Below are positions 9,229 through 51,270 of a stretch of 64,000 nt of DNA, piece by piece. The notes under the pieces were generated by a model. That model made no database searches, had not been told where the DNA came from, and saw nothing but the letters and a program-made list of their open reading frames with translations. Source of the stretch: Oligoflexia bacterium (lineage in GTDB: Bacteria > Bdellovibrionota > UBA1018 > CAIPTA01 > JAALKR01); contig JAALKR010000009.1 of the NCBI GenBank assembly GCA_011087955.1, positions 2,239-66,238 on the forward strand, read 5' to 3'. Each line of letters begins with the position of its first letter. The first letter of the stretch is position 1. The translations under genes and the position numbers were made by a program.

Positions 9229-10866
9229 TTACCCCATGAATGGATAGCGATAATCCGTCGGTGGGTCGTAGGTTTCCTTGATCGTTTGTGGAGAAACCCA
9301 GCGATAGAGGTTGAGAACAGAGCCCGCCTTGTCGTTAGTACCTGAGGCGCGAGACCCACCAAACGGCTGTTGTCCAACAACAGCGCCTGTTGGCTTATCA
9401 TTAACATAAAAGTTTCCAGCGGCGTGCCGTAGAACATCCATTGCAGTATTTACAGCGGGCTTGTCTTTTGCAAAAATAGCCCCGGTTAAAGCATACTCAC
9501 TAGACTGGTCACAAAGCTCCAGAGTTTTCCTATAGTCTTCGTCCTCATAGATATAAACTGTTAGGACGGGACCGAAGATCTCCTCCACCATTGATTCATA
9601 TTGCGGGTTTGTTGTTTCAATCACTGTTGGATGAATGAAATAACCCTCTTCTTTTGAGCATTCTCCACCAAAAATTATTTCGCATTCCGAAGACTCTTTG
9701 GCTCGCTGAATATAGCCAGAAATTTTATCAAAAGATTTTTCGTCAATAACAGCGTTAATAAAGTTAGAAAAATCTGTGACGTCGCCCATTTTCATGTCAG
9801 CTATATCTTTTTGCATCAAAGACTTTACTTCCGACCATAGTGACTTTGGAATATAGGCACGACTAGCGGCGGAGCATTTTTGGCCTTGGTATTCGAATGC
9901 ACCACGAACTAGAGCCGTGCTTAATGCCTTAACATCAGCCGAGGGGTGTGCGACGACGAAATCTTTACCGCCGGTTTCACCGACAATTCGTGGATAGGAT
10001 CGATAATGTTCAATATTATTGGAAATCGTTTTCCAGATGCTGCGGAAGACTGAAGTACTTCCAGTGAAATGTACACCCCCTAGGTCCTTATCCTTTAGAA
10101 TAGGCTCTGCAATTTTAGAAGATGGGCCGGGTAAGAAATTAATTACACCAGCGGGCATTCCAGCCTCTTCAAATATCTTCATCACAATATAGTTTGATAG
10201 AACGGAGGTGCCACTTGGTTTCCAAACGGCAGTATTGCCCAACATCGCAGGAGCCGAGGGCAAATTACCAGCGATCGCAGTGAAATTAAAAGGAGTAATA
10301 GCAAAGATAAACCCCTCTAGTGGCCTATGCTCCATTCGATTGGAAATACCTGGAGCAGATTCGGGTTGCTCTGCATAGACTTTCTGCATGAAAAAGGCAT
10401 TGAAGCGAAGGAAGTCAATGAGTTCACAGGCAGAGTCAATCTCAGCTTGTAATGCGCTCTTACTTTGCCCAAGCATTGTGGCGGCGTTAAGTTTTGCCCG
10501 GTACGTAGTAGCCATAAGTTCGGCTGCCGTTTGAAAGATCGTTGCCCGATCGCTCCAGGGCATTCGCTCCCAGTGAGCTTTAGCTTCCATTGCGGCTTGA
10601 ACGGCCATGAGAGCATGCTCTTCAGTTGCCTGGGATACTTTAGCTAGGACAGAGCTATGCTTATGGGGCTCACGAAAATCAACCTTCGATTCCGTATGAA
10701 TCTCCTTTCCATCAATGATTAGAGGGATATCGATGCATTCTTTTCGCATCTCTACGAGAGCGTTCTCTAGGGCCATTCGCTCCTTCTCCCCCGGTGCATA
10801 GTTGAGCACGGGTTCGTTGACCGGCTTTGAAATTGTGTTGCTAATATTACTCACGGAATTATTCAT
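9229..10866 (-). CDS. pruA: L-glutamate gamma-semialdehyde (1-pyrroline-5-carboxylate) dehydrogenase
   Basis: A 545-aa aldehyde dehydrogenase with catalytic Glu 'VGETGGKD' and Cys 'GQKCSAASR'. Its length and N-terminal region resemble stand-alone P5C dehydrogenases. A good SD (GAGGGAG) lies upstream. Confidence 0.85.
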   Translation of the reverse strand: MNNSVSNISNTISKPVNEPVLNYAPGEKERMALENALVEMRKECIDIPLIIDGKEIHTESKVDFREPHKHSSVLAKVSQATEEHALMAVQAAMEAKAHWERMPWSDRATIFQTAAELMATTYRAKLNAATMLGQSKSALQAEIDSACELIDFLRFNAFFMQKVYAEQPESAPGISNRMEHRPLEGFIFAITPFNFTAIAGNLPSAPAMLGNTAVWKPSGTSVLSNYIVMKIFEEAGMPAGVINFLPGPSSKIAEPILKDKDLGGVHFTGSTSVFRSIWKTISNNIEHYRSYPRIVGETGGKDFVVAHPSADVKALSTALVRGAFEYQGQKCSAASRAYIPKSLWSEVKSLMQKDIADMKMGDVTDFSNFINAVIDEKSFDKISGYIQRAKESSECEIIFGGECSKEEGYFIHPTVIETTNPQYESMVEEIFGPVLTVYIYEDEDYRKTLELCDQSSEYALTGAIFAKDKPAVNTAMDVLRHAAGNFYVNDKPTGAVVGQQPFGGSRASGTNDKAGSVLNLYRWVSPQTIKETYDPPTDYRYPFMG

Positions 10867-24735: not shown

Positions 24736-25620
24736 TTAAAAATGCCAAGGAAACTTAGAGAAGTCCCGAGGTCGCTTTTCATTGAAATGATCACGCCCCT
24801 CTTTGGCCTCTTCCGTCCCATACGCCAATCGAGTGGCTTCTCCGGCAAAAATCTGTTGACCCATGAGCCCATCATCCGTAAGATTCAGTGCAAATTTTAT
24901 CATACGGACTGCTGTTGGGCTTTTTGAGTTTATCTCGCGTGCCCATTCTAGCGCTACATGTTCAAGTTTATTATGGCTCACGACTTTGTTGATCATGCCC
25001 ATATCAAAAGCTTCTTGGGCAGAATAATTCGCCCCTAAGAAGAAAATTTCCCGTGCACGTTTCTGGCCAATCATCTTTGCCAAATAAGCTGAGCCATAAC
25101 CTCCATCAAAGCTTCCAACATCTAGATCTGTTTGCTTAAAGATAGCGTGTTCTTTTGAGGCCAATGTTAAATCACAGACAACATGGAGTGAATGTCCGCC
25201 ACCCACAGTCCAACCAGGCACAACAGCCATCACAACTTTTGGCATCGTTCGGATCAAACGCTGGACTTCTAGAATATGTAAGCGACCTAACTTTCCACCA
25301 CTTTCATATTGGTAACCATCTTTCCCACGAATCCTTTGGTCACCGCCAGAGCAAAAAGCCCAGCCGGAATCCTTCGGTGAGGGACCATTTCCAGTAATTA
25401 AAACGACTCCCACGTCATGCCATTGCCGGGCATGATCGAGCGCTGTGTAGAGCTCATCTACGGACTGCGGACGAAAGGCATTGCGTACCTCTGGCCGATG
25501 AAAAGCAATCCGGACTGTGCCCTGATCTTTTGCACGGTGATATGTGATGTCTTGAAACTCGAAACCTGGGACTTTGTCCCAAAGCTGAGGGTCGAATATT
25601 TCTGAAATTTTTTTTGTCAT
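24736..25620 (-). CDS. menB: 1,4-dihydroxy-2-naphthoyl-CoA synthase (naphthoate synthase)
   Basis: Colinear with E. coli MenB: 'RPEVRNAFRP', 'FCSGGDQRIRG', 'VVPGWTVGGGHSLHVVCDLTLAS', 'GSFDGGYGSAYLA', and C-terminal 'EGRDHFNEKRPRDFSKF'. Confidence 0.92.
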   Translation of the reverse strand: MTKKISEIFDPQLWDKVPGFEFQDITYHRAKDQGTVRIAFHRPEVRNAFRPQSVDELYTALDHARQWHDVGVVLITGNGPSPKDSGWAFCSGGDQRIRGKDGYQYESGGKLGRLHILEVQRLIRTMPKVVMAVVPGWTVGGGHSLHVVCDLTLASKEHAIFKQTDLDVGSFDGGYGSAYLAKMIGQKRAREIFFLGANYSAQEAFDMGMINKVVSHNKLEHVALEWAREINSKSPTAVRMIKFALNLTDDGLMGQQIFAGEATRLAYGTEEAKEGRDHFNEKRPRDFSKFPWHF

Positions 25621-25624
25621 AGAA

Positions 25625-27382
25625 CTAAACCTTCTGTTTTAAAGCAGACACTTCTTGGCGTAGTCGCTTTAGCTCGTTCAACATCTCAACACGCTCTTCA
25701 TGACTTCTCTCAGCGCGCTCTTCAGCAGCCGTTTCTGTTTCAGCCTGCATCGAGTTGACAATTACAGCGATAAATAGGTTCAGCATTACAAAAGTAGTCG
25801 ACAAGATGAAGGGTACGAAGAAAAGCCAGGCATAGGGCTTTTCTTCCATCACCGGCCGCACAATTCCCATAGACCAACTCTCTAGAGTCATAATCTGAAA
25901 TAGGCTATAGGCACTCTCACCAATCGTGCCGAACCATTGAGGAAAATCATGGCCAAACAACTTAGTCGCCATAACCGCGCCAATATAAAAAAGTATGCTC
26001 ATAATAGTGCCAACTGCACCGAGGCCAGGGATGGCTTGCAATAGACTATTCACTACTCGTTTTAATGACGGAACCACCGAAACCATACGGAGGGTACGAA
26101 GGATTCGCATCGCACGCAATACACTGAATGGACCGGATGAAGGAAATAATGCAATTCCCACCACAAGAAAATCAAAAATTCGCCAAGGGTCGGTGAAAAA
26201 ACGTAGCCGGTACACAATCATTTTTGTGAGCAATTCAATTATAAAAAATCCTAGAAAGATTTGATCTATTTGCGTAAGTAAAATTTTATTTTCGTCGCTT
26301 AGGCTGGGAATAGTCTCCAATCCCAATGTGAACGCATTCAAAATAATGACGGAAATTACGAATTTTTCAAATTTGGTTGACTCAATAAGCCTGCGTAAAT
26401 TAAAGAACAAAGTATCCACAAACATTGCTTTGGCGACATAAAAGGCGACCATTGGATTTTCATACATACGGCGAATGGAGTAGGGATGCCAATCCACACC
26501 ATAAGGAACATATACACGAATTGGATGGCCGGTATTTTTAATTTCCGAGCGTAGGTTGGGCAATACTCCGTAGAGCATTTGAAATTCGTACTTATCTTTG
26601 GGGATATTGTGTTTTGCAATAATCGATTTGGCCGCATCCACAAGAACTTTGTCATGCGTAGCAATTGCAACAAAGGCGCCTTGTTCGAAAGCTAATTCCA
26701 AGCAGTGAACATAATTATCAACGATTTCCTGGTATCCCTGATAAGCGATTTCTTCTGGCTCTTTATAGATTCCCTTACAGATACGAACATTGAGTTCATT
26801 CTTGGTATGATTTTGAATGTCGTCTAAGGTTCGTTTTAAGTATGCTTGATAGACAATACCCACCCGTGAATATTTTGCTTTCAGCTCATTATAAAGACGA
26901 ATTGTATCATCTGTGAATGTAGCGTTTTCCATGTCGATGCGTACAAAGATTTCGTGTTTGCAAGCCACTTCAATCAGTCGAGAGAAATTAGCAAAAGCCA
27001 GTTCATAGGAGACGCAAAGGCCAAGTGCTGTAGGTTTTACCGAAACACCGGAGGCGATTTGTTTGCGTATGATATCTTTCACTAATACGATATATTGGTC
27101 CGTATACGCAAGGGCAGCTCTCTCAGTATATACCGACTCACCCAGAATATCCAAGGTGCCCTTAACATTTTCGTTGTTTAGTTCCTGGGTTTTTTGCAAA
27201 GCAGTGTGGCTATCTTCACCGGCCACATATTTAAATGCGATGGGTTTAATCATAGCTAGCGGCAAGAATTCTAAGATGCGCACTAGTAATTGACTTAATT
27301 TTAGTAATCGACTTAATTTCATTGGTGAATTACCCCAAGGATTGGTATCAATATCACCCAGGTAATCGAGCGACAAGTTCAA
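25625..27382 (-). CDS. Fusion protein: proline dehydrogenase (N-terminal) joined to a NavAb/NaChBac-type voltage-gated sodium channel (C-terminal)
   Basis: One uninterrupted 585-codon ORF. Residues about 21-320 are PRODH ('FKYVAGED', 'GTLDILGE', 'VRIDMEN', 'GIVYQAYLKRT', 'RICKGIY', 'IATHD', 'FQMLYGV', 'VYVPYG', 'IRRMYENP'). Residues about 325-585 are a 6-TM channel with S4 'LRAMRILRTLRM' (nt 26057-26119), pore 'FQIMTLESWSMGIVRPVM' (filter at nt 25865-25888) and a C-terminal coiled coil 'VEMLNELKRLRQEVSALKQKV'. The track start is TTG 27382; an alternative ATG at 27322 (Met21) aligns better with PRODH N termini. Confidence 0.85.
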   Translation of the reverse strand: MNLSLDYLGDIDTNPWGNSPMKLSRLLKLSQLLVRILEFLPLAMIKPIAFKYVAGEDSHTALQKTQELNNENVKGTLDILGESVYTERAALAYTDQYIVLVKDIIRKQIASGVSVKPTALGLCVSYELAFANFSRLIEVACKHEIFVRIDMENATFTDDTIRLYNELKAKYSRVGIVYQAYLKRTLDDIQNHTKNELNVRICKGIYKEPEEIAYQGYQEIVDNYVHCLELAFEQGAFVAIATHDKVLVDAAKSIIAKHNIPKDKYEFQMLYGVLPNLRSEIKNTGHPIRVYVPYGVDWHPYSIRRMYENPMVAFYVAKAMFVDTLFFNLRRLIESTKFEKFVISVIILNAFTLGLETIPSLSDENKILLTQIDQIFLGFFIIELLTKMIVYRLRFFTDPWRIFDFLVVGIALFPSSGPFSVLRAMRILRTLRMVSVVPSLKRVVNSLLQAIPGLGAVGTIMSILFYIGAVMATKLFGHDFPQWFGTIGESAYSLFQIMTLESWSMGIVRPVMEEKPYAWLFFVPFILSTTFVMLNLFIAVIVNSMQAETETAAEERAERSHEERVEMLNELKRLRQEVSALKQKV

Positions 27383-27438: not shown

Positions 27439-28356
27439 ATGGGAGCTGAGTTTTTCGGATCTGAGCTGAAGCTGCCCCTAATTGCGGCCCCGATGTTCTT
27501 AGTTTCTGGGCGGGAGCTAGTTACGGCGGCCACAAACCACGGAATCGTAGGCACCTTCCCAGCGCTAAACGCTCGCACGACTGAGAAATTCTCTGAATGG
27601 CTGGATGAAATTAAAGAGTCCGTTGGTGATAGGCCGTATGGTGTGAATTTGATTGTTCATCGCTCAAATCCTCGTTTAGAAGCCGATTTGAAAATATGTG
27701 TTGCGCACAAAGTTCCACTCATTATCACCTCCTTAGGAGCCGTTAAAGATTTAGTCGATACGGTTCACTCCTATGGCGGCAAAGTTTTTCATGATGTGAC
27801 AAATGTATATCACGGTAAAAAAGCGGCGGACGCCGGTGTAGATGGAATCGTTGCCGTATCGGCGGGCGCAGGCGGACACGCGGGAACGACTAATCCATTT
27901 GTCTTAGCTTCTGAGATTCGTTCATTTTATAAGGGTAAGCTAGTCTTGGCTGGTGGTTTATCTACGGGTGCACATATTAGGGCAGCAAAAGTGCTTGGTG
28001 CTGATTATGCCTATATGGGGACGAGATTTATAGCAACGAAAGAAAGTTCAGTGCAAGATGGCTTTAAGGATATGATTGTCCGTTCCAATAGTGGTGATAT
28101 CGTGCATACGCCAGCGGTCTCCGGAGTACCGGCTAATTTTATGGCAGAGAGCCTTGAACAAAATGGATTTGACTTGAAGAAATTACGAGAAAAAGGTGAA
28201 GTAGATTTTGGAGACAAGCTTACCTTGAATGACGAAGCCAAAGCGTGGAAAGATATCTGGTCTGCAGGCCACGGTGTAAGTTGTATTCAAGATATTCCGA
28301 CGACCGGAGATTTAGTCAATCGCCTCGTTTTGGAATACGCGGAAGCTGCGGTTTAA
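27439..28356 (+). CDS. Nitronate monooxygenase (2-nitropropane dioxygenase family, FMN-dependent)
   Basis: 'LKLPLIAAPMFLVSG', 'GVNLIVH', 'AGGHAG' and 'GADYAYMGTRFIAT'. ATG 27439 was chosen because it is preceded by GGGAGGAGG. The track start 27322 would overlap the divergent gene and add 39 non-homologous residues. Confidence 0.85.
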   Translation: MGAEFFGSELKLPLIAAPMFLVSGRELVTAATNHGIVGTFPALNARTTEKFSEWLDEIKESVGDRPYGVNLIVHRSNPRLEADLKICVAHKVPLIITSLGAVKDLVDTVHSYGGKVFHDVTNVYHGKKAADAGVDGIVAVSAGAGGHAGTTNPFVLASEIRSFYKGKLVLAGGLSTGAHIRAAKVLGADYAYMGTRFIATKESSVQDGFKDMIVRSNSGDIVHTPAVSGVPANFMAESLEQNGFDLKKLREKGEVDFGDKLTLNDEAKAWKDIWSAGHGVSCIQDIPTTGDLVNRLVLEYAEAAV

Positions 28357-28441
28357 TCAAGAAGATCTACAAGACTAGGCATTTCCATCTAACCAGGGTA
28401 CACTTTTCCTCATTAGGGTTACTTATTTGGGGAGGCTGCAG

Positions 28442-28903
28442 ATGCTAGAGTTTACACTCAATGGCGATAAGGCTCAGGTGGATGTTCCAGGGGATACTCC
28501 ACTACTATGGGTATTACGCGAGGAACTTGGGTTGACCGGAACGAAGTTCGGTTGTGGCCTTGCTCAGTGTGGTGCCTGTACGGTGCATATGAATGGTGAT
28601 GCTATCCGCGCCTGCGTAATGCCGGTATCAGGGGTAGCTAATCAAAAAATAACTACCATAGAAGGAATCATGGCCGATGAGTTGCATCCGGTGCAGAAGG
28701 CTTGGGTGAAACATCGAGTCCCTCAGTGCGGCTACTGTCAGTCAGGCCAGATTATGCAAGCTGTAAGCCTACTAGAGAAAAACAAAAAAATAGATATGGA
28801 TGAACTTATTTCGGGCATGAATGGCAATATTTGTCGTTGCGGTACCTATAATAAAATTAGACTCGCCCTTAGGGATGCAGCCAAGGAAATGGGTAGAGTT
28901 TAG
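28442..28903 (+). CDS. (2Fe-2S)-binding small subunit of a molybdenum hydroxylase (IorA / aldehyde oxidoreductase gamma-like)
   Basis: Plant-type cluster 'GCGLAQCGACTV' and second cluster 'CGYCQSGQIM...NICRCGTY'. About 153 aa from ATG 28442. Confidence 0.9.
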   Translation: MLEFTLNGDKAQVDVPGDTPLLWVLREELGLTGTKFGCGLAQCGACTVHMNGDAIRACVMPVSGVANQKITTIEGIMADELHPVQKAWVKHRVPQCGYCQSGQIMQAVSLLEKNKKIDMDELISGMNGNICRCGTYNKIRLALRDAAKEMGRV

Positions 28904-28906
28904 TTT

Positions 28907-31123
28907 ATGCAAGTGACTCGAAGAGAGTTCCTGAAAACCGGTTCCTTGGTAGCGGCTTTCGCTGTTCCCGGCGCGAAATATGCTTTTGCAGATGAGAATG
29001 CAAAGAAAAGTATACCTACCCATTATTTTGAAATTTCAAAGGAAGGAAAATTTTTCTTTACGTTCGATAAGGCAGAAATGGGGCAAGGAGTAATCATGGG
29101 ACAAACGACGCTCTTTGGAGAAGAGGCTGATATCAATCCGGTTGACTTAAATACGCGAGTGGCTGGTGTAGATTCTCGTTATGCAACAATGATGGGGCAC
29201 CAAGTGACTGGTGGTAGCACAAGTACCGCAGACCGGTGGATGGTATTAAGAAATGCCGGTGCGGAAGTGCGCGCATTGATGATTAAGGCAGCAGCGCAGA
29301 AATGGAATATTTCGGAAAAAGAATTAAAAACTGAAAATGGACATGTTCTGAACGGCAAAGGTGAGCGCCTACACTACGGTGAACTGGTTCAAATTGCCAG
29401 CGGTTTACAACTCTCGACCACACCTGCATTAAAGAAGAGAGCGGAATTTCGCTATATTGGTAAAGACGGCTTACCACAACCAGATGCGTATCCGAAGTCG
29501 ACCGGTACCAATGAATTTGGTATTGATCTAAAACTTCCACATATGAAAATTGCCGTCATTGAGCGCAGCCCGGTTTTTGGGGGTAAGCTTAAATCTTTTG
29601 ATGCAACTGAAGCGAAGAAAGTGCCTGGCGTGGATTCGATTATGGAGGTTCCAACCGGTGTAGCCATTGTTTGTGATCGCTATTGGCAAGCATTAAAAGC
29701 ACGTCGTGTGCTTAAAATAGAGTGGGATTCGGGGAAAAATGCGAAGCTTTCTTCAGCGCAAATCATGAAAGACTACCGGGAAAAGATGAAGTCTAGCTCC
29801 GGCTCAGAAGTAGAGAGTAGAGGAGATTTGGATTCTGCATTTGAGGGAGCGGACTTGGTGGTAGAGGCAGAATATGACCTGCCTTATCTTGCTCATTCGA
29901 CAATGGAGCCAATGAATTGTACCGTGGACGCAACCAAAGATGTTTGCGAAGTATATAGTTCCACGCAAGCACCTTCCCTGGTGCGCAACGGAGTAGCATA
30001 CGCTCTCGGAATCAGCCGCGACAAGGTCTTGGTAAAGCCCGCAAAGTATCTGGGAGGTGGCTTTGGTCGCCGCAGCACAATTGACTATTCCGTAGAGGCA
30101 GCACTCTTATCGAAGGAAGTTGGTAAGCCTATCAAAGTAATTTGGTCACGGGAAGACGATACTCGACACTCTCCAATGCGACCAATTTCGACACATGCAA
30201 TGAAAGGTGCATTGAAGGATGGAAAAATTTCAGCATGGCAACATAAGCTTGGCTGTGAGTCGATTATGCAACAAGTAATGCCTCGGTGGTTGCCGTTGAT
30301 GGCGCCGGGATGGTTGCCAAGGTTTGTTGGTTCCACATTAGGTGGCGCTGCCGGTTTAGCAATGCGGGTAATGAATTTTTCACCGACCACAGCGGAAGGC
30401 GCGATTATTGATTATAAAGTCGATAATTTTTCTGTTCATCATTATCGCTTGGGGCTAAATATTCCTCTCCATTTCTGGCGCTCTGTCGGGCATAGCTATA
30501 CAGGATTTGTCGTGGAGAGCTTTATGGATGAGCTGGCGCACCAGGCGAAAAAAGATCCGTATACTTTCCGCCGTGACCTATTACCGGAAGAGTCACGTAT
30601 TCGAGCAACTTTGGATAAAGTGGTGGAGATCTCAGGCTGGCACGATTCTCGAGAAGCAGGACACATAGGACATGTAGAGCATGCTGGACATGGCCGGGGG
30701 ATTGCCTGCCATACATCTTTTGGGTCTTATGTTTCACAAGTGGCAGATGTCACTGTTGAAGGTGAGCAGATTAAAGTCAAAAAAGTGTTTTGTGTTGTGG
30801 ACTGCGGCCTTGCCGTCAATCCAGATATGATTCGTAAGCAAATAGAATCGGGCATTACATACGGCTTGTCCGCAGCCCTCAGTGGTGAGATTACATTAAA
30901 GGATGGCGCTATTGAGCAAGGCAATTTTGATACTTACCCTCCCGTTCGCCAAACAGAAATGCCAGAAGTTGTGGTTCATGTGATAGAGTCAAGTGAGGCG
31001 CCGACAGGAGTGGGTGAGCCCGGTCTACCTCCTATCGCAGCCGCGGTGGCTAATGCTATCTTTAGTGCTAGTGGCATGCGTCTACGGAGTTTGCCATTGC
31101 GAATCGGTATAGGAGATGCGTGA
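28907..31123 (+). CDS. Molybdopterin-dependent hydroxylase large subunit (IorB / aldehyde oxidase-xanthine dehydrogenase family), Tat-exported or membrane-associated
   Basis: Twin-arginine signal '[20 protein letters not shown]'. 738 aa with the two-domain Mo-binding architecture typical of isoquinoline 1-oxidoreductase beta-type subunits ('GGGFGRR', '[18 protein letters not shown]'). Starts 3 nt after the small subunit. Confidence 0.88.
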
Positions 31124-31949
31124 AGCAAAGCAGCTTCTAGAGTTTGTCCGTTCTGTGGATGCAGATGAATTTATTCTAGCAAGCATCATTGCGACAGAGG
31201 GCTCTAGCTATCGAAAAGCTGGAGCAAGAAAGGTGATTGCCCTGGATGGGAGTTCTGCTGGCCTATTAAGTGGCGGGTGCCTAGAAGGTGAAATCATAAA
31301 TCGCGCTCTCCGAGTTTCGCCTCCAAGAGAAGAGCATGTTTTCGATACGATGGATGAGGTGGATCGCCTCTTTGGTTATGCGACAGGTTGTCAGGGAAAG
31401 ATCACCGTTGCTTTTGAGCGCTTATCTAAAGATGAGCTATATCAGGGGTCATATTTAGGTATATCACCAGCGGATAAATTGGAAATTCGTGTGGTTGGCG
31501 CTGGGCCGGACCTAGATCCATTGCATGAACTGCTGCAATGGACGGGTTGGGATTACCACTTCTTTACACCAAAAACAGATTTACTGAAGGATCGAATGGC
31601 CCAGGGTTGGTTGATTCAAAAACTAGATAATCAGAAACTCAAGAGCTCTATTAATTTGCCCGAGCGCTCGGTGGTGTTACTCATGTCCCATAACTACCCC
31701 ACCGACCTAGACGTATTGTCCTCTTTAGCCGATCAAAAATATGGTTATATTGGAATCCTTGGGCCAAAAGAACGCCGCGAAAAGATGATGGAAGATTTGC
31801 ACAAAGTTTATCGGCAGGATATTTCACCAGAATTCTCCAAGCGAGTTTTTGGCCCTATCGGGTCGGTGAATCTTGGGCGGGGTGAAGTGGCTGTCGCTAT
31901 GGCCATTGTGTCTGAATTACAGGCTCGATTTTTTGGAGAACGGGGCTAA
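31116..31949 (+). CDS. XdhC/CoxI-family molybdenum-cofactor insertion chaperone
   Basis: N-terminal '[20 protein letters not shown]...GGCLEGEI' and C-terminal Rossmann-like 'VVGAGPD' domain. Overlaps the large-subunit stop by 8 nt. Confidence 0.8.
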
Positions 31950-31953
31950 AGCA

Positions 31954-32526
31954 TTGATAGCAGTCATATTAGCTGCAGGGTTGGCGACAAGATTTGGCTC
32001 CTGCAAGCAAATCGCTAAGATCGATGGTAAACCTATGATCGGGCACGTCTTAGATTCTCTACCGGAAGATATTCCAAAATTTGTGATTACTGGCGCCTAC
32101 CAGGACCAAGTCGTAGAAGCTTGTCGAGGACAGAACTGCAAGTTTGTAGAGAATAAGCATTATCGATTGGGAATGAGCTCCTCCATTCGATTGGCAGCTC
32201 AAATTGCAGAGCAAGAATCAGATGATTTATTGCTCACCCTTTGTGATTTGCCATATGTTCATCAATGTGACTATCAGCATTTGCTTAAGCAGTTCGGAGG
32301 TGAGACTCTCTTCTCTCGGTTTCAAGACTCCGCTTCACGAGAATTTTTTGGTCCGCCGGCAATATTTCCAAAATCTACACTGGCCATATTAACCCAACTC
32401 GGTGACGGAGAGCGCCCCAAACGAATTTTCCCCAAGGCTCGCTCCATAGTTATAGAGAATGCAGGTAGAGATGTGGATTATCCTCTGGAAACATCCAATT
32501 CTATAGCTCCCGTAAATGGCGCATAG
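31954..32526 (+). CDS. MobA/MocA-like nucleotidyltransferase (molybdenum cofactor cytidylyl/guanylyltransferase)
   Basis: 'IAVILAAGLATRFGSCKQIAKIDGKPMIGHV' nucleotide-binding loop and 'LLLTLCDLPYV'. A TTG start at 31954, just after the XdhC stop, is inferred. The track ATG 31873 would overlap xdhC by 77 nt with non-homologous residues. Confidence 0.7.
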   Translation: MIAVILAAGLATRFGSCKQIAKIDGKPMIGHVLDSLPEDIPKFVITGAYQDQVVEACRGQNCKFVENKHYRLGMSSSIRLAAQIAEQESDDLLLTLCDLPYVHQCDYQHLLKQFGGETLFSRFQDSASREFFGPPAIFPKSTLAILTQLGDGERPKRIFPKARSIVIENAGRDVDYPLETSNSIAPVNGA

Positions 32527-48459: not shown

Positions 48460-49620
48460 TCAGATAAAGGTCTTCTTTTTAATCTTCTCAATCATAATTT
48501 TTTCGAAGCAAAGTGGGTCTTTTGCGTCTACAGAGAAAAAGGCCTGCTGTTCACAACGAATTTTATTCTTAACTAGCCAACGCAGGATATCCGAAAGTTT
48601 TTTATTCCTTCGATCTCGAAAGAACGGATCATTAGCTAGTGCATCTTTTGCCTTTTTCAAGGCACGTAGCTCACCCTTATCCATTTTCTTTACATTGTAG
48701 CAATCTAGATCATATTTTTTAACGTCTTCCGGGAGCACACCAAGGAATCGAACTTTTGGAGCAGAGAAATCGGAATTTCGAATGAGCGAAGCGGCCGATC
48801 CAGCTTTTAATGTGCGGTAAATATTTTGCAGAGTATATGCGTCGAGGTCACCACAGAAATAAATTGGAACTTTAAGCTGCTCTTGAATCGTTTTCGTCCA
48901 ACCACGTACGGCGTTCGACGGAACACCAGCAGCCCCCATAAGGATGCAATTATGCCGCTTTGTCATGCCCATCGAAGCTAAGGTATTTGCTGTGCCTTCC
49001 GATTCAAGGATTAGGCAGAAATCAATTTTCTTCTTAGCTTTTAGCTTCAATGATTGCGGCTTGTTCTTGGGCTGGAACGGAGTTGTACCGAGGCTAGATA
49101 GATCGATCGTTGCTTTTTCTCCATCAGGAAGAATTTCTGTCACGATCAAAGCTTGCGAATAGGTTTGACCGCCGCGGTCGTTTGCATAACAATTGAGTTC
49201 CTCCCGGTACACTTCCAACATATCGCAAATGAACTCAATAATTGGATCACTTTCATTTTGGTCCTCAAAATCGATCGCACCATATTTTAAATTATCACGA
49301 ACTAAACCTTTGGCACGGTAATAGAGCTCTCTTTTTGTATTCACCGCACCAATGTCAATATTGTTCAGGAGTAGCTCCAAAAAGAAGACAACTCGGGAAA
49401 GCTTTTGCACAGAGCTTACATTTAGCTCCGTACGAATTTTTTTCTTACCTGGTGTAAGGTAGCCGATCGATGGTGAATAAATAGAATTGTCTAGCGAACA
49501 TTTAATAGCTTGTAGCTCGGGACGCTTAGCTTGTTCAAGGGTTTGTAACATATCATCGCAAAGGCTTTTGGCAATTTTAGGTATGTTTTTGGTCTGTTTA
49601 CGAATTTTAAGTAGTGTCAT
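48460..49620 (-). CDS. top6A: Type IIB DNA topoisomerase VI subunit A (Spo11/Top6A family)
   Basis: Catalytic-Tyr motif 'TKRELYYRAKG'. Toprim Glu 'FCLILESEGTANTL' and DxD 'IYFCGDLDAYTLQNIY'. Also 'GAAGVPSNAVRGW' and C-terminal 'KIRCEQQAFF'. 386 aa. ATG is preceded by AGGGGAA, 12 nt after the top6B stop. Confidence 0.88.
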   Translation of the reverse strand: MTLLKIRKQTKNIPKIAKSLCDDMLQTLEQAKRPELQAIKCSLDNSIYSPSIGYLTPGKKKIRTELNVSSVQKLSRVVFFLELLLNNIDIGAVNTKRELYYRAKGLVRDNLKYGAIDFEDQNESDPIIEFICDMLEVYREELNCYANDRGGQTYSQALIVTEILPDGEKATIDLSSLGTTPFQPKNKPQSLKLKAKKKIDFCLILESEGTANTLASMGMTKRHNCILMGAAGVPSNAVRGWTKTIQEQLKVPIYFCGDLDAYTLQNIYRTLKAGSAASLIRNSDFSAPKVRFLGVLPEDVKKYDLDCYNVKKMDKGELRALKKAKDALANDPFFRDRRNKKLSDILRWLVKNKIRCEQQAFFSVDAKDPLCFEKIMIEKIKKKTFI

Positions 49621-49632
49621 TTCTAATTTCCC

Positions 49633-51270
49633 CTAGCTATTGCGACGAGCGGCTTCTTTTGTTTTTAGTACATCAAGTTTTGTCTTTGCCTCTTCGAGTT
49701 CTTTCTTAGCGTCTCGTGTGTCACGTCCTAATAATTTGGCCAAACCCTCTTCTGCTTTTTTGGTTCGCGACTTTGGCGCTTTAGCAATACGGCCGAGAAT
49801 ATCGATTAGGATTGGACCGAATTTCTCGATATGAGCTATTTTCTTTTCAAGCTGAGATTCTTTATGTTCACGTCGAATATGGCGTGAAAGCTTTTGTCCC
49901 GCTTGCATCAACGCCCGGCGAATCTCTTCAATGAGTTCTTCCGAAGAGTCGATTGTTTCTTTGGACGCATTCTTAAATTTAATAAAGGGAGAAGTTATGG
50001 AAATAGCAAAAACGTATGGACCAAGTGGAATAGAACGCTTTGGTTGAGTAACTCCATAGGATCGCCAATTTACAGTTTCTAGTGCTTGTGTAATGGCACA
50101 GCCTCCTTTATCAAACTGAAGCGGTACTCGATTGGCAAAGCGCAAAAGTTGTACTGGTTCATCGGCGTCCCCGCGATTAATAAATCGAGCTAGAGCCACT
50201 TCCACCACGACTGGCTTGAAATCACAAATCCGAGGCTTACGCGTTACTACAGACATGAAGTCGACTTCACCCAGACGAGCAATCGACTTCGCAAGATTAG
50301 CTTCACCAATGGTAAGTACTGATTGTGTACTCGGATTCATTAAGTCCGTGCTTTGAATCGCCTGGAAGCAAGCTTTGTATTGATCCTGCGATAATTGAAT
50401 GACACGTTTCTTTAATACATTTTTAGGTAAACCAGCAGAGACAAACGCTTTGATAGTTTGGTCTGTAACGCGGGAAAAGCCTTTCTTTAGGAAGGACGAG
50501 AGCGGTGTGTTGTCATAAAGATGGGCATGGCCAATAAATTCTCCAAGCTTCATTGTGTGAGGGTGGGGGAGCGTTGCCGGTGGGATTTTTGGAATATCCG
50601 ATCGCACACGTTCGATCTTAACCCAGTCGTTTTCGAGTAATTTATAATTGATATCGAGGTGTGGGTTCACAAGAGTTGTGCCTTCAAGGTAAGTCAGCAA
50701 ACCACCGTCACCATTTAACTGAACCCGTCCATCAATGCGGAACTCTACCTTTACACCGTGGGGCTTATTCCAATCAATGGTGCTCTTCTTTTTGATGATT
50801 CCTTTATTGCCTTTGATATTAACGTTGATGAGGGCTTTAACGGCTTTACGCATTCGTTTCGTTTTGGAAGTAACCGTAACCCCTTTGGCGTTTGTAAGTT
50901 GTGCCCAAGTGACGGATGCGGAAATACCAATCCCTTGCTGGCCACGAGAACATTGTCCGCGACCAAACTTAGAGGAGGCAAGGTATTCGCCAAATACTTT
51001 CGGTAATTCTTCTAACTCGAGACCAGGGCCATTGTCTTCAATAATGAGCTCTACAAGATCTGTATTGCGCCCTGACCCCTTGCCAACTTTCTTTATTGTA
51101 ATATTAAGTTCCGGGAGAATGCCTGCTACTTCGCATGCGTCGAGCGCATTATCAACAGCTTCTTTCAATGTGGTAAGGACAGCCTTCGTCGGAGAAGAGA
51201 AGCCAACTTGCTGCAGATTTTTGGCAAAATACTCTGCCGTAGAGCTGGTAGTAATTTTAGGCTTCGTCAA
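49633..51270 (-). CDS. top6B: Type IIB DNA topoisomerase VI subunit B (GHKL ATPase + transducer)
   Basis: Bergerat-fold motifs: N box 'LKEAVDNALDA', G1 'IEDNGPGL', G2 'SRGQQGIGIS'. The 545-aa length is typical of archaeal Top6B. TTG start at 51270 is preceded by AGGGGGGA. Confidence 0.88.
   Translation of the reverse strand: MTKPKITTSSTAEYFAKNLQQVGFSSPTKAVLTTLKEAVDNALDACEVAGILPELNITIKKVGKGSGRNTDLVELIIEDNGPGLELEELPKVFGEYLASSKFGRGQCSRGQQGIGISASVTWAQLTNAKGVTVTSKTKRMRKAVKALINVNIKGNKGIIKKKSTIDWNKPHGVKVEFRIDGRVQLNGDGGLLTYLEGTTLVNPHLDINYKLLENDWVKIERVRSDIPKIPPATLPHPHTMKLGEFIGHAHLYDNTPLSSFLKKGFSRVTDQTIKAFVSAGLPKNVLKKRVIQLSQDQYKACFQAIQSTDLMNPSTQSVLTIGEANLAKSIARLGEVDFMSVVTRKPRICDFKPVVVEVALARFINRGDADEPVQLLRFANRVPLQFDKGGCAITQALETVNWRSYGVTQPKRSIPLGPYVFAISITSPFIKFKNASKETIDSSEELIEEIRRALMQAGQKLSRHIRREHKESQLEKKIAHIEKFGPILIDILGRIAKAPKSRTKKAEEGLAKLLGRDTRDAKKELEEAKTKLDVLKTKEAARRNS

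Follow-up and report, generated by a model that had tools for sequence, protein, structure and literature searches.

An open reading frame joining a proline dehydrogenase to a NavAb-type sodium channel in a Bdellovibrionota bacterium

The stretch analysed here, referred to as the window, comprises 64,000 nucleotides (nt) of contig JAALKR010000009.1 (positions 2,239 to 66,238, forward strand; assembly GCA_011087955.1) from an Oligoflexia bacterium of the Bdellovibrionota. One gene on its minus strand carries a complete proline dehydrogenase (PRODH) and, directly behind it, a complete bacterial voltage-gated sodium channel of the NavAb type (BacNav). We read this gene as a real, lineage-specific end-to-end fusion in an uncultured, predatory-type member of the Bdellovibrionota that would act mainly as a membrane tether for PRODH, a reading on which we judge the balance to be even. 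The joint between the two halves has a structure that points to a simple origin, and the same structure keeps alive some of the alternatives weighed below.

Domain composition of the fused gene

The program-made list of open reading frames (ORFs) of the 64-kb window holds a 585-codon frame without a stop at 25625..27382 (-), which opens at a TTG. The ATG at 27322 (residue 21 of the 585-codon ORF) is most likely the true start, because Met1 of P0121, the nearest PRODH, falls on this codon in the alignment and because the overlap with the divergent upstream gene then disappears. The protein would thus have 565 amino acids (aa), and residues are numbered from this Met unless the 585-codon ORF is named. 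The uninterrupted minus-strand frame of the initial annotation is retained, as no stop was found in it, with its start moved to this ATG. The features of the gene are as follows.

25625..27322 (-): fused coding sequence, 565 codons and a TAG stop (25625-25627); from the ORF, the alignment with P0121 and the Logan assembly of SRR10987117
26414..27322 (-): PRODH domain, residues 1-303; from Pfam PF01619, NCBIfam, PDB, Foldseek and conserved columns
26399..26413 (-): junction T304-N308, ACT TTG TTC TTT AAT; from the limits of homology
25628..26410 (-): BacNav channel, residues 305-565, with pre-S1 helix, S1-S4, pore, S6, and C-terminal neck and putative coiled coil; from Pfam PF00520, 3RVY and the AlphaFold2 (AF2) model
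26087..26116 (-): S4 gating charges R403, R406, R409 and R412 (LRAMRILRTLRM), at every third position; from invariant columns and the NavAb S4 alignment
25868..25888 (-): selectivity filter TLESWSM, residues 479-485, identical to NavAb
25628..25747 (-): C-terminal helical tail (neck, putative coiled coil), residues ~526-565; from AF2 and the NavAb alignment

Both domains score far above their Pfam gathering thresholds in the 585-codon ORF, Pro_dh (PF01619) at residues 61-310 (E 1e-33, 117.6 bits, cut-off 27) and Ion_trans (PF00520) at residues 338-552 (E 2.8e-42, 145 bits, cut-off 25). Judged from the alignments, the match of both halves is far beyond chance, because they match solved structures at E 1e-54 and E 1e-75. 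Residues 25-298 align with the Thermus PRODH (PDB 2EKG/2G37; E 1.9e-54) up to residue 322 of the 327 in that chain, and residues 305-563 align with NavAb (3RVY; E 1.4e-75) from its Met1 to a few residues short of its C-terminus. The initial annotation had claimed two complete domains in one ORF, and this description holds; the motifs that it quoted are all present (FKYVAGED, IRRMYENP, LRAMRILRTLRM in S4 and FQIMTLESWSMGIVRPVM in the pore), as are the four S4 arginines at every third position and the TLESW filter.

The PRODH half opens with a helical arm at its N-terminus, continues with a (beta/alpha)8 flavin barrel and closes with helix alpha8, which carries Y281, R284, R285 and E288. It aligns with positions 28-304 of the 307 in the NCBIfam profile ProDh_Thermus (NF045947) at 241 bits, below the equivalog cut-off of 500 bits, and by the NCBI rule is a member of the family rather than an equivalog of the Thermus enzyme. 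The AF2 monomer model (mean predicted local distance difference test, pLDDT, 86.7) was built from a verified mixed alignment of 24 PRODH and 8 channel rows. It has pLDDT > 90 across the PRODH barrel, a distorted (beta/alpha)8 fold with C-terminal alpha8, and its N-terminal half is matched by Foldseek to 2G37, 2EKG, 4H6Q and 5M42 (template modelling score, TM, 0.89-0.96; root-mean-square deviation 1.3-2.1 A). Sixty of the 61 columns conserved in at least 95% of 24 stand-alone PRODHs are retained, with L286M as the exception. Among them are K96, D130, Y281, R284, R285 and E288, which form the predicted substrate and flavin site (the beta-strand Lys, the IDME Asp and the Y-x-x-R-R-x-x-E motif). 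Pfam detected no domain of the aldehyde dehydrogenase (ALDH) superfamily for L-glutamate gamma-semialdehyde (P5C) dehydrogenase in the ORF, and the protein does not qualify as a PutA. The N-terminus of the PRODH half also contains an 18-nt tandem duplication, in perfect register and 94% identical, at 27284-27319 (-), which encodes residues 2-13 (KLSRLL-KLSQLL); the nearest homologue, P0121, carries one copy of this segment.

The channel half is preserved too. It retains 61 of the 63 columns that are invariant in eight stand-alone channels (exceptions L405M and I520V), including T479, L480, E481 and W483 of the filter. For both halves, conservation is in the range obtained by leave-one-out comparison of the homologues. 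AF2 places S1 at residues 316-336, followed by helices at 343-377, 379-391, 397-416 and onward, and ends, in this monomer model, with a single long helix at 496-564 that is aligned with the NavAb C-terminal domain and has pLDDT 87-96 at its end. Foldseek matches the C-terminal half of the model to NavMs and NavAb.

Structure of the junction

The DNA of the joint reads, in frame, GAT ACT TTG TTC TTT AAT, and contains a T-run at 26409-26411, a TTG codon at 26408-26410 and an out-of-frame (frame +2) TAA at 26400-26402. The TTG codon (residue 305) aligns with NavAb Met1. PRODH homology extends to residue 310 in the comparison with P0121 (FVDTLFFNLR / FVDSFVYLFR), and channel homology begins at residue 305 (NavAb) or at the latest at 309, with LRRLIES identical in the channel-only protein P0005; on these alignments one homology touches or overlaps the other within T304-N308, which leaves no linker. 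The initial annotation had described essentially no linker, and the joint is tighter still than it supposed. Read-through of a stop codon with a translated intergenic linker is ruled out by the absence of such a linker. The junction-spanning peptide is AMFVDTLFFNLR, and AF2 predicts one continuous helix over the joint (residues 290-313; pLDDT 72-80), in which the final helix of PRODH passes into the pre-S1 helix.

Insertion of any single base in codons 303-305, for instance T3 to T4 in ACT TTG, gives two products. The first is a PRODH of 307 aa, ending in AKAMFVDTFVL before a stop, which has the length of the ProDh_Thermus profile; the second is a channel of 261 aa, beginning MFFNLRRLIES, that starts at the TTG aligned with NavAb Met1. 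The two restored genes overlap by 11 nt. The end of the 307-aa PRODH falls at or a few residues beyond the end of most stand-alone PRODHs, as the sampled homologues stop 1-4 residues after the position equivalent to KAMF, P0121 being longer. In the window's other genes, 1.5% of positions combine a start-type codon with a stop in a shifted frame no more than six codons away; the share is 0.24% when a homopolymer is demanded as well and ~7% with five codons of tolerance. Overlapping cistrons (-1, -4, -8, -14 nt) are common in the window. The most economical interpretation of the joint would be a single-base deletion between two translationally coupled cistrons. Loss of one T would explain both the completeness of the partners and the absence of a linker, and with such an origin the fused and unfused states would differ by one base only. 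The initial annotation overlooked this closeness to two overlapping genes of canonical length, and the refutation that it had itself named, two ordinary adjacent genes, survives as an alternative.

Distribution of the architecture

No second protein with Pro_dh and Ion_trans was found in a word-indexed search of 5.8 billion protein clusters, which returned only the fusion itself (P0001); all other matches covered one half only, at identities of at most 58%. An exhaustive HMMER search of 1.84 billion representatives likewise found no second fusion, and each of its best 150 matches covered one half (~27-332 or ~325-585 in the 585-codon numbering). Contig scans of JGI metagenome contigs and of GTDB species-representative genomes, a set to which the source genome does not belong, yielded no fusion and only PRODH-only loci with identities of at most 48%. 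Besides the fusion itself, no protein at least 90% identical to either half was present in a collection of ~15 billion proteins. The P0001 cluster has one member from one sequencing run, and the lineage is therefore essentially unsampled. No description of a fusion between PRODH and a voltage-gated sodium channel was found in the searchable literature, nor any mention of the run SRR10987117. The Pro_dh and Ion_trans architecture is unique, with no counterpart among ~15 billion public proteins: each half is ordinary for its family, and the combination is uncatalogued. This agrees with the novelty asserted in the initial annotation, while the orthologous fusions or conserved junctions that it suggested looking for in relatives were found neither in the protein scans nor in the contig scans.

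The two genes are not neighbours elsewhere either. By tblastn of the flanks, no channel gene was found within 6-10 kb of ~160 PRODH loci. The closest channel homologue (~58% identity) has unrelated neighbours and no PRODH-channel neighbourhood, and the closest PRODH homologues also have unrelated neighbours, with no channel gene nearby. A conserved PRODH-channel operon is ruled out by this absence of adjacency at the ~160 PRODH loci and around the closest homologues. The closest PRODH, P0121 (60% identity), stands alone, with its own stop, a hairpin and then a convergent ClpX-like gene. It has an unusually long hydrophobic C-terminal tail, FVDSFVYLFRLVFRPGADQ (L005 4579-4640), followed by a GC-rich hairpin terminator, and this tail might be a membrane-binding helix typical of its PRODH clade.

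Accessory domains on BacNavs are rare, yet known. Other long homologues were of three kinds. One has a C-terminal TerB domain (P0257). The second comprises P0002, P0003 and P0122 (406-425 aa), which possess an extra N-terminal voltage sensor, that is, a complete S1-S4 module ahead of the channel with six transmembrane helices (six-TM); two Ion_trans stretches are seen by Pfam in P0002, and this ten-TM architecture of voltage-sensor domain plus channel is recurrent in metagenome bins of Pseudomonadota. The third kind is represented by P0058, a protein of 639 aa encoded on a contig of 2.2 kb. It joins a fragment of PMT to a BacNav and to a propeller repeat of nitrous-oxide reductase, and probably arose by chimeric assembly.

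Tests for artefacts

A Logan contig of SRR10987117, the product of a different assembly pipeline, matches the window at 100% identity along 18,778 bases that include the gene. The tetranucleotide correlation between the two sides of the joint (0.955) is the same as at arbitrary split points, GC content and GC content at third codon positions (GC3) of both halves fall inside the range of the window's other genes, and no repeat occurs in the sequence examined around the junction. An assembly chimera is unlikely given the identical Logan contig, the continuous composition, the lack of a repeat and a join that is exact at both protein termini, because randomly joined pieces would not be expected to meet in frame precisely where one protein ends and the other begins.

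Nothing favours an internal start from which the channel would be translated on its own. The candidate starts M300, V302 and L305 are not preceded by a Shine-Dalgarno motif, which the window's real genes have, and promoter-like matches in the region are at chance level. A sigma-70 consensus match of 11/12 (TTCACA-18-TATAAT) lies at 26888-26917 (-), inside the PRODH coding region and ~480 nt upstream of the junction. An Rfam scan of the window gave no match.

Neighbouring genes

Two neighbouring genes bear on the metabolic setting of the fusion.

24736..25620 (-): menB, 1,4-dihydroxy-2-naphthoyl-CoA (DHNA-CoA) synthase of menaquinone synthesis; Pfam ECH_1, homologues named naphthoate or DHNA-CoA synthase
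9229..10866 (-): P5C dehydrogenase; NCBIfam TIGR01236, 801.5 bits, cut-off 613.6

The menB gene begins 4 nt past the stop of the fusion and is probably co-transcribed with it, because its GAAGG ribosome-binding motif (25630-25634) lies within the last codons of the fusion. The arrangement is a probable operon joining proline oxidation, a Na+ channel and menaquinone synthesis, and it is not conserved in relatives. The closest MenB relatives are named Bdellovibrio and Bacteriovorax, and on this basis the organism belongs to the Bdellovibrionota. Loci of relatives with 90, 87 and 85% MenB identity show no synteny with the window and have unrelated neighbours; P0270 and P0274 were discarded as synteny anchors, being irrelevant duplicated MenB proteins. 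P5C dehydrogenase, which catalyses the second step of proline catabolism, has a gene of its own ~15 kb from the fusion, and its presence in the window implies that proline catabolism is in use. The organism thus has split PRODH and P5C dehydrogenase genes, and Bdellovibrio bacteriovorus has a bifunctional PutA (PDB 5UR2).

Divergent from the fusion, a cluster at 27439-32526 (+) starts with a nitronate-monooxygenase-like FMN enzyme and continues with a [2Fe-2S] subunit, a molybdopterin-binding large subunit, an XdhC-like gene and NTP_transf_3, resembling a cluster of the aldehyde/xanthine-oxidase family. Further along, subunit B of DNA topoisomerase VI is encoded in this bacterial genome at 48460-51270 (-) (NCBIfam NF003218, 517 bits), and the 386-aa ORF adjoining it upstream could be subunit A.

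Proposed origin and possible function

We propose, from the DNA of the joint, that the PRODH and BacNav genes were once two translationally coupled cistrons with an 11-nt overlap, in which the channel start was a TTG inside the last PRODH codons. When one T was lost from the T-run, the channel would have come into frame with the PRODH gene, which would have lost its stop. The product, as the sequence and the model show, is a protein of 565 aa: its intact PRODH barrel and its NavAb-type channel, likewise intact, are linked by one continuous helix that leads to S1. BacNavs have a cytoplasmic N-terminus and form tetramers. With the topology of NavAb and the biochemistry of PRODH, the enzyme would be cytoplasmic and lie beneath the voltage sensor in four copies per channel tetramer, held at the inner face of the membrane, where its flavin must pass electrons to menaquinone. 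The initial annotation had likewise regarded a cytoplasmic PRODH as compatible with the channel topology, and we concur. Membrane tethering of PRODH seems the most plausible consequence. The two activities probably stand side by side, and the fusion would then be a passive membrane tether and oligomerisation scaffold rather than a coupled machine; electrical or redox coupling is speculative. Both functional ideas of the initial annotation, anchoring and coupling to voltage or Na+ flux, lack comparative support, for the fusion is a singleton and its halves are never neighbours in the other genomes examined.

Several points weigh against a fusion maintained as a tether. There is neither an orthologous fusion nor adjacency of PRODH and channel genes elsewhere, and nothing shows that selection kept the fused state. 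The Logan assembly was very probably built from the same reads. Only a single base separates one gene from two, so that the same sequence would result from a consensus error or from an allele that is minor or recent. The pLDDT at the joint reaches only 72-80, and the geometry between the domains is without co-evolutionary support. Finally, a rigid continuation of alpha8 into a transmembrane helix could impair the enzyme, because in the Thermus PRODH both catalysis and the assembly of tetramers depend critically on alpha8 and on how it packs (PMC6017737).

One alternative, which we regard as doubtful though more probable than the others, is that the fusion is real, recent and non-adaptive: a frameshift kept by drift or in the course of being lost, with a rigid joint that may impair one or both halves. 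An origin by a single base change, the lack of conservation of either the fused state or the adjacency, and the complete absence of linker adaptation, which suits a young event, all agree with it. However, neither half shows decay, and the separate P5C dehydrogenase suggests that PRODH is needed. Both termini are also known to tolerate extension, because the engineered MBP-NavAb was solved (6P6W) and PutA chains run past PRODH. The missing orthologues, moreover, say little about age in a lineage sampled this poorly (nearest PRODH 60% and nearest channel ~58% identical).

It is improbable, in our judgement, that the organism has two ordinary overlapping genes here, with TTTT as the true sequence of the junction, an operon that encodes a PRODH of 307 aa and a BacNav of 261 aa, and a fused ORF that is a consensus or assembly error or a minority allele. 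The argument for it is that one inserted base, at a short homopolymer, gives two proteins of canonical length with an 11-nt overlap, that the fusion is known from a single sequencing run, and that odd singleton multi-domain proteins such as P0058 do occur in metagenome assemblies. Yet two assembly pipelines agree over 18.8 kb. Their agreement points to accurate short reads, in which a consensus error between T3 and T4 is rare. Nor does the 15-billion-protein collection hold a separate PRODH or channel at least 90% identical to either half, and the frame-0 tail FVDTLFFNLR is still alignable with the P0121 tail FVDSFVYLFR.

A coupled 'chanzyme', in which proline oxidation or the flavin redox state would modulate Na+ gating, or movement of the voltage sensor or S1 would modulate PRODH, through the helix from alpha8 to S1, appears very unlikely. 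Both partner families form tetramers, and proline uptake and respiration are tied to Na+ and membrane potential in many bacteria. The catalytic alpha8 (R284, R285, E288) runs directly into the helix leading to S1 in the AF2 model, and the orientation of alpha8 controls catalysis in the Thermus PRODH, itself a tetramer (PMC6017737). Several facts speak against such coupling: the fusion is not conserved, carries no co-evolution signal and lacks an adapted linker, neither half is distinguishable by sequence from its stand-alone relatives, and the enzyme precedes S1, whereas it is S4 that moves in known voltage-controlled enzymes (PMC13095418). Still less probable is a fixed, functional form of it, in which four PRODH barrels on the voltage sensors would let proline or redox state tune Na+ entry, or membrane potential tune electron input to menaquinone.

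Relation to known systems

Set beside the homotetrameric BacNavs NavAb, NavMs and NaChBac, the channel half of the fusion is colinear with NavAb from Met1 to the C-terminal domain and has the four S4 arginines and a TLESWSM filter identical to that of NavAb. In known BacNavs, however, the stretch ahead of S1 ranges from a few residues to a few tens and has no folded domain, whereas the fusion has a 303-residue flavoenzyme ahead of pre-S1. The engineered MBP-NavAb fusion was reportedly used for cryo-EM. It (PDB 6P6W) carries a soluble domain of ~40 kDa directly on the NavAb N-terminus, a position that tolerates a large cytoplasmic domain. MBP-NavAb is nevertheless artificial and its MBP inert, while the partner in the present fusion is a natural redox enzyme.

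On the enzyme side, the PRODHs of Thermus thermophilus and Deinococcus radiodurans (2G37, 2EKG, 4H6Q) share their fold, helical arm and alpha8 with the fusion, and their P5C dehydrogenase is on a separate gene, as in the window. The helical arm of the Thermus enzyme may serve contacts with the membrane or with partners (PMC6017737). These enzymes stop 1-5 residues past the KAMF-equivalent position and are peripheral at the membrane, in contrast to the fusion, whose last helix runs into a transmembrane protein. PutA, for example that of Bdellovibrio bacteriovorus (5UR2), also extends its PRODH chain C-terminally and works at the membrane; in the PutA chain of Geobacter (1005 aa), the PRODH match stops near residue 441. 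In PutA, however, PRODH is fused to the enzyme that acts next in the pathway, while the window protein has no ALDH domain and resembles PutA weakly (E 1e-16 to 1e-20).

Kv1 channels, which have the NADPH-binding Kv-beta subunits as aldo-keto reductase (AKR) TIM barrels docked non-covalently under the N-terminal T1 domain, are eukaryotic, and redox coupling to channel inactivation is documented for Kv-beta. This complex is the nearest natural analogue in layout, with four TIM-barrel oxidoreductases below a tetrameric six-TM voltage-gated channel. It is non-covalent and uses an NADPH AKR, whereas the fusion is covalent, contains a flavin PRODH, and its redox coupling is hypothetical. The TRPM2, TRPM6 and TRPM7 chanzymes are tetrameric six-TM cation channels with a C-terminal NUDIX or alpha-kinase domain, eukaryotic and conserved across animals. 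Like the window protein they are covalent fusions of channel and enzyme, with the enzyme at the opposite, C-terminal end. In Ci-VSP, a voltage-sensing phosphatase (VSP), the enzyme is linked covalently to the S1-S4 sensor, behind S4, and no oxidoreductase partner is listed among known voltage-sensor proteins (PMC13095418). The enzyme of VSP follows S4 and there is no pore, while in the fusion the enzyme precedes S1 and the pore is complete with S6, which sets the latter outside the VSP type. TRPM chanzymes and VSP are hence the nearest covalent analogues, differing in the position and the kind of enzyme.

Conclusions

Should the fused ORF turn out to be two genes, they would be an ordinary gene pair, and the case would illustrate that singleton fusions in metagenome bins need read-level checks. 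The fusion itself indicates how little is required for a linker-free fusion of two intact proteins, as one deleted base in an overlapping gene pair suffices. An expressed and active fusion would be the first metabolic redox enzyme found in nature in covalent attachment to a bacterial voltage-gated sodium channel, and would represent, in compact form, a prokaryotic equivalent of the Kv-beta/Kv1 complex or of the TRPM chanzymes. With such a protein, one could ask in a simple setting whether a single polypeptide can couple metabolism to membrane excitability.

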